Positions 84 through 12,591 of a stretch of DNA of 12,591 nt are shown in pieces (within the stretch, counting starts at the first letter, position 1; the number at the start of each line of letters is the position of its first letter). The DNA lies in the NCBI GenBank assembly GCA_041660065.1, contig JBAZXC010000001.1, positions 456,535 through 469,125 on the forward strand, in the 5' to 3' direction. Below the pieces are notes generated by a model. The model saw nothing but the letters and a program-made list of their open reading frames with translations. It did no database searches and had not been told where the DNA came from. The stretch is from Parcubacteria group bacterium. GTDB lineage: Bacteria; Patescibacteriota; Minisyncoccia; Moranbacterales; GCA-2747515. The position numbers and the translations under genes are program-made.

Positions 84-983
84 CTATTTTAACATCCACA
101 CATCATTTTTGCACAGTACCATCTGGTCTTTTTTTAATCCATCCAAAACATTTTTACACCATTCATGATCATTTGCTTCATGCCAGTCCTTTTTGATCAC
201 TTGCCCGATATCGTTAATTGTTCCATTTCTCTGTCGTAAAAATTCCACTATGCGTCCTCGAAATATCCTCCGTGGCACATGTTTGTCACATTCACTCCGT
301 CCAACTTCTTTGCGCGCAACCTTTTTTTCATCCTGCGGATTCGGAAATGACAAACACATATCCATAAGGGGGCATTGCAAACATTGTGGCGCACGTTTTG
401 TACATATGATCGATGCAAAATCCATCAGCGCATTATGCCAATCTCGCGCATGCCCACGATACAAGAATTTTTCTGTCCACTTTACAACCTGTTTTTCCGG
501 TGCACTTTTTTTCTTGTGCAGTCGGCGCATGATACGCGCGATATTTACATCACATGCTGCCACATCACGATTACGTGCAAATATCAATATTGAGCGACTT
601 GTATATGTACCAATACCCGAAAACTCTATCAGTATTTCTGGCTCATCAGGAAATATACTTTGAAAATCTTTTACGATCGTTTGCGCCATTTTGTGTACAT
701 AGATTGCACGTCGATTGTATCCCAATCCCTGCCATTGCGTGATCACATCTTTTTGTGAAGCTTGCGCAAGCCGCTTGATTGTTGGAAAACGTTTGAAAAA
801 ACTTGTATACTTTTCAATAACCTTTGGTACATTTGTCTGCTGTAACATGATTTCCGCAATTGCAACATGATAGATATCTGTGGTTTTTCTCCACGGCAAA
901 TAATGGCGTCCGTATTTTCTATACCAAAGCATGATCTTTTTATGCATGACATCAACTTTATTTTGCATAGGCATTTTTACCAT
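84..983 (-). CDS. mutY: A/G-specific adenine DNA glycosylase, MutY-like (HhH-GPD plus 4Fe-4S cluster loop)
   Basis: The translation has WYRKYGRHYLPWR...YHVAIAEIMLQQTNV, matching the MutY/EndoIII N-terminus. The HhH motif is GIGTYTSRSIL, with no Lys after the GxG, which is MutY-like. The catalytic Asp context is AACDVNIARI. The FeS loop CTKRAPQCLQCPLMDMC has C-x6-C-x2-C-x5-C spacing. The track ORF runs to 1058, but that extension overlaps the upstream thermonuclease gene. The start is placed at the in-frame ATG 983-981; ATGs at 974 or 968 are alternatives. Stop is TAG at 86-84. Confidence 0.8.
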   Translation of the reverse strand: MVKMPMQNKVDVMHKKIMLWYRKYGRHYLPWRKTTDIYHVAIAEIMLQQTNVPKVIEKYTSFFKRFPTIKRLAQASQKDVITQWQGLGYNRRAIYVHKMAQTIVKDFQSIFPDEPEILIEFSGIGTYTSRSILIFARNRDVAACDVNIARIMRRLHKKKSAPEKQVVKWTEKFLYRGHARDWHNALMDFASIICTKRAPQCLQCPLMDMCLSFPNPQDEKKVARKEVGRSECDKHVPRRIFRGRIVEFLRQRNGTINDIGQVIKKDWHEANDHEWCKNVLDGLKKDQMVLCKNDVWMLK

Positions 984-3199: not shown

Positions 3200-4206
3200 T
3201 TATAAACCATGTGTCTGTTTATTGACGATGTGTTCTTCAAAAGTTTTGGAAAAGATTGTTTCTCCGGTGGATGGATCATTCAAAAAATACATGTAGTCAG
3301 TTTTTGCTGGTGCAATCGCCGCATCAATCGAAGCCAATGACGGATTATTGATCGGTCCCACAGGCAATCCAGGATATTTGTACGTATTGTATGGTGAATC
3401 AATTTCAATGTCCTCTTGTGAGTGTTTGATCTCCGCATCACCTTTGATATAATCGATTGTCGCATCACTTTGTAATGCCATATTGATCTGCAAACGATTG
3501 TTAAAAATGCCCGCAACCACACTCCGATCACCATGCAGCGGCACCTCTCCCTCAATAACACTCGCAAAAATGATTACATCATGCAAATTACGACCATGTT
3601 CCTTGATTGCGGTCCGTCTGCCGTCATCAACCTTTTTGTTAAAATTATCCAACATTTTTTCAATAATTTCCTGCGCTGTCGCAGTAGGCAAAAATGAATA
3701 TGTGTCTGGAAATAAATATCCTTCAAGAGACGCTCCTCGTGTAAGGAAATCGTACTTTTGATAAGTTCCGCAGGCGGATCAAGTGCGATCTTTTGAAACT
3801 CCTCCCCCGGCAATCCCTTTGCATTAAGTCGATCTTTCATTTTTTCCGCTGACCATCCCTCAGGAAAAAGAACATCAATATCTTGATCGACTTTGATCAT
3901 TGCCTGCCCATCTGTTGTCAATTTGTATACAATATCAGCAATAGTACTTTGTGGTTCGATCATATAATCACCTTCATTGAACTGTCCACGCAATTTATTT
4001 TTCCATGCATAATAATAAAAATAAAACCTGTTTGCAATCAAATCATCGTCCGCAAGCTTTTGTCCAATCACAACAATATCATCACCTTTTTGTACCGTGA
4101 ATTGAAAACCACTCGTATTGAGTGACACGCTTTTTTGTGTTCGCACATGTAAAAAAAATATACTACACACAAGTATGCCCAAAACAATGATAATCCATTT
4201 TTTCAT
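3200..4206 (-). pseudogene. mltG: Endolytic murein transglycosylase MltG/YceG, disrupted by an apparent 1-nt deletion in a homopolymer (coding-strand A4, plus-strand TTTT 3756-3759)
   Basis: Track ORF 3574..4206 supplies the N-terminus: signal anchor MKKWIIIVLGILVCSIFF and FPEGWSAEKMKDRLNAKGLPGEEFQKIAL. The other frame supplies YDFLTRGASLEGYLFPDTYSFLPTATAQEII, then track ORF 3200..3691 with ASVIEGE...VVAGIFNNRLQINMALQSDATIDY...SPYNTYKYPGLPVGPI. These are the hallmark YceG motifs. Adding one A at ATCAAAAGT would give ...AELIKKYDFLTRGASLEGYLFPDTY... as one continuous 335-aa protein. Confidence 0.75.
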
Positions 4207-11297: not shown

Positions 11298-11320
11298 CTC
11301 TTATGCTAATCATCATACCG

Positions 11321-11354
11321 CATAACACAAAAAATCAAAAGCAATCGCTTTTTT
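11321..11354 (-). terminator. Weak intrinsic terminator for the membrane protein gene: AAAAGC-aatc-GCTTTT, then GATTTTTTG on the minus strand
   Basis: A 6-bp stem (11337-11342 pairing with 11347-11352) has a 4-nt loop. The minus strand has a T6 run immediately after it. Confidence 0.4.
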
Positions 11355-11382: not shown

Positions 11383-12414
11383 TTACAAAGCGATCATCTC
11401 AGCATCTCGTTGTGATTTTACAATATTGATAAATTTAAATTCTCGTAACAACATAAAGCCAAAACGTGAAAAAATGACCGCAAAAAACTTTCCGATAGTA
11501 GCTAAAGATAAAACAATGAGAAAGAAGATTGCCGTAAAAAATTCTGCCCGATGATCAAAAAGAAAATCATTTGACATGATCAAATGCTGTAATTGCATAG
11601 AGATCAGTTCCGATATTACACAGGAGGCCAATTCATCACCGCGAACTTCCCGTCCAATTTTTTCTGATATACCGCTTTTAATATCTTCTATTGCTTGTGC
11701 CTCTATATTGTTCTGCACCTTTTCGATCGCGATACCCATGCTACCGGCCCACCGTACGATCATACCTTGATCCTCTACTGAAACCCCTGCATTTTTATTT
11801 TCTTTGGTATATACATCACGAATTATGAGCAGGAGAAAATTATCTACCGTCATTGTATCAAGCGTGATATTTTCGACATTACTTTTTTTGATGACCATAT
11901 CAGTAAGCACATTAATGATCTTTATGTGCTCATTTGCATCAAAAACATAGTTTTCATTGCCTTTCAACAAAAAATAATATTGACTTGTCACGACACAGAC
12001 CATCGCAAATCCAACATAAAAGATCCCGCTCCGCACGATCGTCTTCATGTCAATCATCAAAAGGTTAAAAAGCGTATATCGCATTGTGAGCAATCCATAC
12101 ATGGCAACAAAAACCATTACGATCACAACCACAATGTGCCCCAATGTCGGTGTAAAGATTATGCTTGGCAAGAAAGCGATGAAAACGATCGGTGAAATTA
12201 ATTTTTTAACCCCAACCGTTACAGCAAAAATGGACAATAATGCAGCAAAGATCGTTGCGCTAAAAAATGGCACGAGCCATGCGCTTTGAGATTCTCCATT
12301 CATCGCGCGCGTCACGATCAGAAAGAAAATCGCTCCACAGGCCGTGATCAAAACAGCAAATACCATATCGATCGTGCGTATTTTTTTTGGATTCATTCCT
12401 TCTGCCGCACCCAT
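11383..12414 (-). CDS. Multi-pass membrane protein of unknown function (about 5 N-terminal TM helices, a ~140-aa soluble domain, and a C-terminal TM)
   Basis: The hydrophobic segments are clear, for example IDMVFAVLITACGAIFFLIV and FFTAIFFLIVLSLATIGKFFAVIF. No family was recognised. Start is at ATG 12414, or at 12396. Confidence 0.55.
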   Translation of the reverse strand: MGAAEGMNPKKIRTIDMVFAVLITACGAIFFLIVTRAMNGESQSAWLVPFFSATIFAALLSIFAVTVGVKKLISPIVFIAFLPSIIFTPTLGHIVVVIVMVFVAMYGLLTMRYTLFNLLMIDMKTIVRSGIFYVGFAMVCVVTSQYYFLLKGNENYVFDANEHIKIINVLTDMVIKKSNVENITLDTMTVDNFLLLIIRDVYTKENKNAGVSVEDQGMIVRWAGSMGIAIEKVQNNIEAQAIEDIKSGISEKIGREVRGDELASCVISELISMQLQHLIMSNDFLFDHRAEFFTAIFFLIVLSLATIGKFFAVIFSRFGFMLLREFKFINIVKSQRDAEMIAL

Positions 12415-12451
12415 AATTTTTTATTTTCTAAGTCTTTTTTTAATTTTTTTC

Positions 12452-12521
12452 CCCTGTACCAGTGCGGTACAGGGCACAGCCCTGTTGCCGAATGGTACGG
12501 GGCACAACCCTCTTCCCAAAT
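12452..12521. repeat. GC-rich structured element: a perfect 9-bp palindrome, an overlapping 6-bp palindrome, and two tandem 28-bp imperfect repeats
   Basis: CCCTGTACC (12452-12460), loop AGTGC, GGTACAGGG (12466-12474) form one palindrome. CAGGGC (12470-12475), loop ACA, GCCCTG (12479-12484) form a second that overlaps the first. Unit 1 (12466-12493) and unit 2 (12494-12521) match at 23 of 28 positions. A polypyrimidine tract follows at 12548-12576. Confidence 0.5.
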
Positions 12522-12591
12522 TAGCACAAGACAAGCCATTCTATAATTCCTACTCCCACTCCCCAACTCCTACCCCCTAATTGTAATACCC

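Follow-up and report, generated by a model that had tools for sequence, protein, structure and literature searches.

The stretch of DNA analysed here, the window, comprises 12,591 nucleotides (nt) of contig JBAZXC010000001.1 from a Parcubacteria group bacterium of the Moranbacterales, and ends on its right-hand side in a GC-rich, structured island. The island is the 162-nt spacer between two genes that are both read from the minus strand, namely a gene for a surface protein, whose last codons lie at the very edge of the window, and, downstream of it, a gene for a 343-aa membrane protein. We consider the island to be the 3′ flank of the surface-protein gene, which exists in multiple copies, and the strong hairpin within it to be most likely a 3′-end or stabilizing stem–loop of the mRNA of that gene, an interpretation that we hold with rather more confidence than doubt.

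Base composition switches abruptly inside the spacer. GC content is 8.3% at 12415-12450, 65.4% at 12451-12502 and 55% over 12451-12579, against a window mean of 39.4%, and the latter two segments are the stretches of highest GC among all those of 52 nt and 129 nt, respectively, in the window. The sharp change from AT-rich to GC-rich DNA that had been described in an initial annotation of this sequence is thus confirmed, with 36 nt at 8% GC abutting a hairpin core at 65%, and the palindromes listed there are also found where they had been placed: perfect 9-bp arms, CCCTGTACC (12452-12460) and GGTACAGGG (12466-12474), and a 6-bp pair, CAGGGC (12470-12475) and GCCCTG (12479-12484), sharing 5 nt with the second 9-bp arm. 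The reported 28-bp tandem duplication is equally real. Its units (12466-12493 and 12494-12521) are identical at 23 of 28 positions and make up the top tandem repeat with a period of 20-40 in the window, and in 200 simulations of the window with a first-order Markov model their identity was never equalled. Tandem Repeats Finder does not report the repeat at a minimum score of 30, because two copies with five mismatches score only about 21 by our own arithmetic. The tract at 12549-12577, which had been called a poly-pyrimidine stretch, is C-rich, and G-rich on the minus strand, but since it contains five A residues it is better described as G-free than as purely pyrimidine; it is part of a 47-nt G-free run (12536-12582) that is the longest in the window. 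In the sense strand this run carries several GGAG/AGGA motifs, and taken alone it shows no structure (z = 0.04).

Table 1. Features at the right-hand end of the window (L002, metagenomic contig described in the text; dG, folding free energy; a dot marks features without assigned strand)
Feature	Position	Strand	Basis or remark
343-aa multi-pass membrane protein gene	11383-12414	-	Downstream neighbour, not functionally tied to the island
AT-rich spacer between hairpin and ATG of the 343-aa gene	12415-12450	-	8% GC; A7TTA7 on the sense strand; absent from L002
Composite 21-bp stem–loop (10-bp outer and 11-bp inner stem)	12451-12502	-	Folding energy; comparison with L002
Alternative short hairpin (9-bp arms, 5-nt loop)	12452-12474	.	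dG -17.3 kcal/mol; z -3.3
Stretch 100% identical to L002 154-280 (127 nt)	12465-12591	.	One k-mer overlap of a k=127 assembly
Tandem 28-nt units	12466-12521	.	Unit 1 contains the inner hairpin; start of unit 2 provides the outer-stem partner
74-nt 3′ spacer between stop codon and hairpin	12503-12576	-	Identical in L002; no significant fold
G-rich, C-free tract of the sense strand	12536-12582	-	Begins in the last codons and reaches 41 nt beyond the stop
Last four codons (G Y Y N) and TAG (12579-12577) of the co-directional surface-protein gene	12577-12591	-	Identity with L002; homologues end alike

The two palindromes had been taken to be mutually exclusive. Folding does not bear this out, since in the minimum-energy structure both coexist as one composite hairpin, whose outer stem (10 bp) joins the left arm to the beginning of the second tandem unit and surrounds an inner hairpin (11 bp) formed by the first unit. 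The segment 12445-12504 is the most stable 60-nt fold of the entire window on both strands (-36.1 kcal/mol on the plus and -31.3 kcal/mol on the minus strand, where the next best 60-nt fold reaches -25.4 kcal/mol and the mean is -8.2 with a standard deviation of 4.0), and the corresponding z-scores of the hairpin are -4.95 and -3.94. The short 9-bp hairpin (Table 1) competes with the composite fold, which is far more stable. From its architecture, with a degenerate second tandem copy and a partial third arm, we infer that the hairpin is the product of a tandem duplication by slippage of a smaller ancestral hairpin unit, which is what it looks like. With such a duplication, both the repeat and the overlap of the palindromes would be explained, and no switch need be invoked.

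Further copies of the island were searched for with a degenerate 24-mer of the repeat unit in GTDB species genomes, IMG/VR and JGI metagenomes. There was no match in the 185,579 GTDB species genomes and none in IMG/VR, the sole match in the JGI metagenomes being contig L002; nor does the 12.6-kb window contain a further copy of the hairpin. L002 is 97% identical to the window over 12451-12591, and homology stops at the base of the hairpin, at 12451, to the left of which L002 is unrelated to the window and encodes the first part of another, small membrane protein. In the other direction L002 runs on for 1.1 kb beyond the window edge, where its minus strand has an open frame of 300 aa or more that ends in ...SGQYTGEVTFTATSDASGYYN-TAG. 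The final 15 bases of the window are therefore coding and represent the codons GYYN plus the stop. The shared unit thus reaches 126 nt past the stop codon, its end coinciding exactly with the base of the 52-nt hairpin, and the perfectly shared stretch (12465-12591) is 89% non-coding. L002 bears out the earlier expectation that the island continues past the window edge. The assignment of the whole GC-rich region 12440-12591 to a leader, on the other hand, needs to be corrected, because 12577-12591 belong to the coding end of the upstream, co-directional gene. Neither could the further claim that the island is the 5′ leader of the 343-aa gene be upheld: in L002 the island precedes an unrelated gene, and it therefore belongs to the upstream gene. 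In addition, orthologues of the 343-aa protein (45-61% identity) are preceded by DnaK, by a 152-aa open reading frame (ORF) or by a contig end, and have no GC-rich island.

The comparison also shows why the contig ends where it does. The window edge is a branch of the assembly graph, caused by a second context whose sequence is the same from 12465 rightward. Since the first base that differs between the window and L002 contexts is 12464, a k=31 unitig that enters from the side of the 343-aa gene has to end at 12494, and a SPAdes k=127 contig must end at 12591. A Logan contig (k=31, SRR18595301) does end exactly at 12494, 30 nt into the shared stretch, and 12591, 127 nt into the shared sequence, is the last base of the window, so that two independent assemblies end where the graph branch predicts. 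The suggestion that the island might be the edge of an integrated or repeat element was therefore essentially right, the window stopping at the boundary of a multi-copy gene module. The two contexts presumably represent two loci of one genome rather than two strains.

Homologues of the L002 protein are all from bacteria of the candidate phyla radiation (CPR; Moraniibacteriota / Parcubacteria), and most of them lie on contigs of about 1 kb. In the complete 1.3-Mb genome CP175956.1 (Moraniibacteriota MKparc2), ten loci (L011-L020) encode the same module of about 300 aa, in open frames that span 348-910 aa and have entirely different N-terminal parts, and a hydrophobic, signal-peptide-like N-terminus is present at the first ATG in all copies except L015 and L016 (8 of 10). 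Over the last 600 nt of coding sequence these copies share 85-100% nucleotide identity, which drops to about 0.44 immediately behind the stop and has reached the background level, about 0.3, by about +90. Judged from the sequences, such identity at the DNA level indicates concerted evolution of the module. In four draft metagenome-assembled genomes (MAGs), 11 contigs end inside the module, within its last 28-110 codons; this is the same artefact as at the edge of our window. Pfam and NCBIfam give the module no assignment above cut-off, and a search of the literature returned nothing specific to it. The Pam pilus pilin family (NCBIfam NF058581, CPR_Pam_pilin_C) was considered for the upstream gene module and rejected, with E = 0.53 and a score below the 55-bit cut-off; the faint likeness to the Pam pilus (10.64898/2026.03.03.709456) is a lead rather than a membership.

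A few observations on individual module copies may be added. The module is also present in L025-L039. In L002, an in-frame TAA occurs at ~1166-1168 of the minus strand (…FNFQQFTA*NVTQAVRDEQPTSR…), where homologues have a sense codon, and this copy may be a pseudogene or carry a sequencing error. Two contigs binned as 'Micavibrio sp.' (L010 and L028; DYDB01000016.1 and DYDB01000004.1) encode a CPR-type module at 72-88% aa identity, and for a contig binned as Pseudobdellovibrionaceae (L033) the module match is as low as 33%. The Micavibrio contigs, at least, are likely to be contaminants of their bins or to have been mislabelled.

In relatives, a canonical terminator consisting of an A-run, a hairpin and a T-run usually follows the stop codon of the module gene within 10-60 nt, and homology between paralogues ends just behind this terminator (L037/L038/L039, L011/L016 and L021/L024); in L009, L028, L032 and L036, too, the module is followed by a canonical terminator. 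These statements rest on reading of the sequences, because an automatic best-hairpin scan chose inconsistent windows. When the island was compared by blastn-short with the 3′ flanks of 30 module loci, no similarity was found except to L002 and to the window itself, as represented by Logan contigs L001/L040. We regard the island as lineage-specific and its biology as mostly ordinary.

How, then, may the hairpin work? CPR bacteria of the Moraniibacteriota type attach the C-terminal module, in nearly identical DNA, to many different secreted proteins. In the sense (minus-strand) RNA, the hairpin would act as the 3′-end structure of the surface-protein transcript, possibly as a terminator or pause site lacking a U-tract, or else as a barrier to 3′ exonucleases that stabilizes the upstream mRNA, while partial read-through would feed the closely spaced downstream gene. 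Since the shared unit ends at the hairpin base, the hairpin sits in the position of a terminator, and a 21-bp stem–loop located 74 nt after TAG on the sense strand is a feature in common with intrinsic terminators. The differences between the two copies are informative as well. The window and L002 hairpins differ by four transitions (two C/T and two A/G), which all fall in the region of the 3′ arm. On the minus strand, 21 of 21 pairs are kept in both copies, with a change from GC to GU once and from UA to UG twice plus one change in a bulge, and dG is unaffected (-31.3 vs -31.5 kcal/mol), whereas on the plus strand the same substitutions break two pairs and cost about 7 kcal/mol. Because pairing is kept only on the minus strand, a role at the RNA level on the sense strand is favoured, to which the substitution pattern points weakly.

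Several observations weigh against reading the hairpin as a 3′-end structure. Neither copy has a U-tract 3′ of the stem, where the window has A7UUA7 / AAAAAAAUUAAAAAAA and L002 has GUGUAAAU, so the hairpin is not a canonical intrinsic terminator, and a terminator and promoter scan of the minus strand at the island gave no match. Downstream genes begin only 22-36 nt after the hairpin and have no recognizable promoter, which would require either read-through or a promoter that is not recognized. The comparison of copies involves two sequences only and includes no compensatory double change; three G–U-compatible transitions would be obtained by chance in about 1 of 8 cases, and with two near-identical copies selection on the hairpin is not demonstrable. 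Lastly, the left-hand neighbour gene of L002 had no match in the protein collection when a padded query of its 39-aa start was used. The initial annotation had itself set the 3′ end of a convergent gene with a terminator against its own view. The island comes close to this, as it does hold the 3′ end of a gene and a terminator-like hairpin, but the gene is co-directional and the hairpin lacks a U-tract.

Another possibility, which we consider unlikely, is that the hairpin is a non-functional by-product, i.e., a slippage-duplicated hairpin of the terminator type that lost its T-run and travels with the module as the latter is duplicated or undergoes gene conversion. The 28-nt units with their degenerate second copy and partial third arm are what slippage typically leaves behind, none of the relatives examined has the island, the U-tract is missing, and two near-identical copies do not allow selection to be demonstrated. 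Against this, the shared unit ends exactly at the hairpin base, all four substitutions spare sense-strand pairing and leave dG unchanged, and the hairpin is placed where functional terminators stand in relatives. A further idea is that of a dispersed GC-rich palindromic element, similar to repetitive extragenic palindromic (REP) sequences or miniature inverted-repeat transposable elements, having come to lie in the module 3′ flank by chance. A GC-rich imperfect palindrome in an AT-rich genome is what one would expect of such an element, assemblies break at the island, and two contigs of another Moraniibacteriota MAG (L021/L024) share a GC-rich palindrome of about 70 nt downstream of module genes. 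Yet each of the two known copies follows the 3′ end of the same gene, from whose stop codon it is separated by an identical 74-nt spacer, no other copy exists in the window, the GTDB representatives or IMG/VR (and in the JGI metagenomes L002 alone), and neither terminal inverted repeats nor a target-site duplication are visible, which makes this explanation quite improbable. One could also imagine a cis-regulatory 5′ leader (a riboswitch, an attenuator, or a portable promoter plus leader) serving whichever gene lies downstream. The pairings of the short 9-bp and the composite hairpin are alternative to each other, a weak promoter-like sequence, TTGGGG-17-TAGAAT (8/12 matches), is present at ~12567-12539 of the minus strand, and in both contexts the next gene begins within 22-36 nt. 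The two downstream genes are unrelated, however, orthologues of the 343-aa gene lack the island, there is no U-tract for attenuation, and the promoter scan was blank on the minus strand here. Rfam yielded no match at the gathering threshold in the whole window and, for 12300-12591 at E values up to 10, only chance fragments of microRNAs, internal ribosome entry sites and small RNAs at 10-15 bits; a scan for tRNA and tmRNA was empty. A leader function is thus very unlikely, and the riboswitch, attenuator or small non-coding RNA proposed earlier, which has neither an Rfam family nor a similar sequence in relatives and precedes an unrelated gene in L002, was not substantiated.

The island could also be translated. 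An ATG at 12539, with AGGA 8 nt upstream resembling a Shine–Dalgarno motif, opens a frame (12539-12393, 48 aa) that runs through the hairpin and might specify a small Cys-containing peptide or an upstream ORF for translational coupling; the frame is open in L002 too (32 aa), and in both contexts its end lies close to the start codon of the next gene. On the other hand, thirty open codons at 55% GC are not unusual, the C-terminal tails of the two copies are wholly different, no genuine homologue was found in 1.84 billion representatives (the matches being repetitive, eukaryote-like junk proteins), and exact look-ups of the 48-aa and 57-aa products found neither on record as a called gene, from which we consider a coding role extremely unlikely. 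An explanation at the DNA level would be that the G-rich tract and a cruciform mark the ends of gene-conversion tracts of the C-terminal module. Perfect identity indeed turns abruptly into non-homology at the hairpin, concerted evolution of the module appears to be strong in the complete genome, and the G-rich tract directly follows the stop. Still, relatives homogenize the module without such an island, the substitutions favour an RNA-level over a DNA-level reading, there is no recombinase gene nearby in the window, and the tract is not a canonical G-quadruplex (G4), taken as four runs of at least 3 G with loops of at most 7 nt: the minus strand reads GGGGG-8 nt-GGGG-3 nt-GGG, i.e., three runs, and the next GGG follows only after 38 nt. 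A recombination signal of this kind therefore seems extremely improbable. In a related picture, the G-rich C-free tract and the U-less hairpin would be the dedicated 3′ boundary element of a cassette system by which CPR bacteria of the Moraniibacteriota type homogenize and exchange a pilin-like C-terminal module between ten or more surface proteins through gene conversion, a very doubtful proposal; that such a boundary element would set the ends of conversion tracts or promote recombination, with a function akin to that of the conserved 3′ repeats and the G4 at Neisseria pilin loci, is just as doubtful.

The likeness of the island to intrinsic terminators, then, lies in its GC-rich stem–loop 74 nt past a stop codon at the 3′ boundary of a gene unit, and it departs from them in its long (21 bp, 52 nt), composite stem, in the missing 3′ U-tract and in the next gene lying 22-36 nt further on. 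It also resembles the malE-malF REP of E. coli, which Newbury and colleagues are said to have described in 1987 as an intercistronic stem–loop that stabilizes mRNA, in being a strong hairpin without a U-tract between co-directional genes. By analogy, a layout of the REP type would be expected to keep 3′ exonucleases off the mRNA of the upstream surface protein, presumably an abundant transcript, and to let a part of transcription read through. Unlike the island hairpin, which is known in two copies, both tied to one gene module, REPs have a consensus and occur dispersed, in hundreds of copies. A further parallel is offered by the pilE/pilS loci of Neisseria, multi-copy surface-antigen genes with conserved 3′ flanks, a Sma/Cla repeat and a G4 element. 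As in that system, we find a homogenized 3′ coding end, a conserved non-coding 3′ segment and a G-rich tract nearby; unlike in Neisseria, there is no sign of silent cassettes, the copies in CP175956.1 being full genes with differing N-terminal parts, and the G-tract of the island, unlike the Neisseria element, is not a canonical G4. Finally, R1.1 of phage T7 is an RNase III processing hairpin between cistrons, and the island, with about two helical turns of double-stranded RNA and a small internal loop between genes, resembles it, although in shape alone.

Of little import in itself, the island comes to lie at the window edge through an assembly artefact that a repeated gene has caused. It suggests, however, that an abrupt 'structured island' at the end of a contig in a CPR MAG may flank a multi-copy gene, in which case it should be read from the side of the neighbouring gene. 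More interesting than the island is the module, without a Pfam family and possibly pilin-like, which is found at 85-100% DNA identity in ten secreted proteins of one genome; it systematically breaks short-read assemblies of these bacteria, and it points to a cell surface that evolves in concert, in organisms that are thought to live attached to hosts. If it were true that hairpins lacking a U-tract end transcripts here, this would bear on termination in CPR bacteria.

Two other candidates for the island were tried and rejected. An integron attC site would be an imperfect palindrome bordered by R''/R' core sites (RYYYAAC ... GTTRRRY) and close to an integrase gene; the sequences GTTGCCG, GTTGGGG and GTTGTGC (12440-12591, both strands) do not fit GTTRRRY, and the window contains no integrase. 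The variable and template repeats of a diversity-generating retroelement would differ at adenines of the template, in the 3′ coding end of a target gene close to a reverse transcriptase; the finding is a shared stretch that is 89% non-coding, with two C/T and two A/G transitions, and no reverse transcriptase gene in the window.

The 3′ flanks of module genes in relatives have some peculiarities of their own. C-free, purine-rich tracts occupy the first 23-50 nt after the stop in L018, L025, L026, L029, L030 and L032; in those MAGs the tracts are rich in TAG, TGA and GGA motifs and resemble the 47-nt tract of the window. In one MAG, L021 (~590-660) and L024 (~2830-2975) have in common a GC-rich palindromic element of about 70 nt behind canonical terminators (…CCCCCTCTGTCC…GGACATCTCCC…AAAGGGGGAGAGG…), a REP-like candidate, and L024 has further CCTCC/GGAGG palindromes. 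Directly after the stop of the closest in-genome module homologue (72% aa identity), L010 carries a tandem (ATTAAGA)x5 at 3389-3425.

The downstream 343-aa protein belongs to no Pfam or NCBIfam family above cut-off. Upstream of its closest orthologue (61% identity), two independent assemblies also end after 78-93 nt of AT-rich sequence (L003 1-78 and L004 1-93), as if the sister species had a repeat boundary in the corresponding position. After the 343-aa gene, at 11320-11345 of the minus strand, the window has a weak, AT-rich but canonical-looking terminator (AAAAGC-GATT-GCTTTT followed by GATTTTTT), so that signals composed of a hairpin and a T-run do occur in this genome, and a TATAAT box is found ahead of an 80-aa gene. 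At the other end of the window, positions 1-51 display a similar layout of arm, anti-arm and arm, TTCAGGATC (1-9), GATCCTGAA (30-38) and TTCAGGAT (44-51), located 33 nt downstream of the stop codon of an HhH-GPD glycosylase gene (84-86, minus strand) and likewise without a U-tract. A Logan contig begins at position 30 of the window, and the left end of the window may thus also be an assembly branch.
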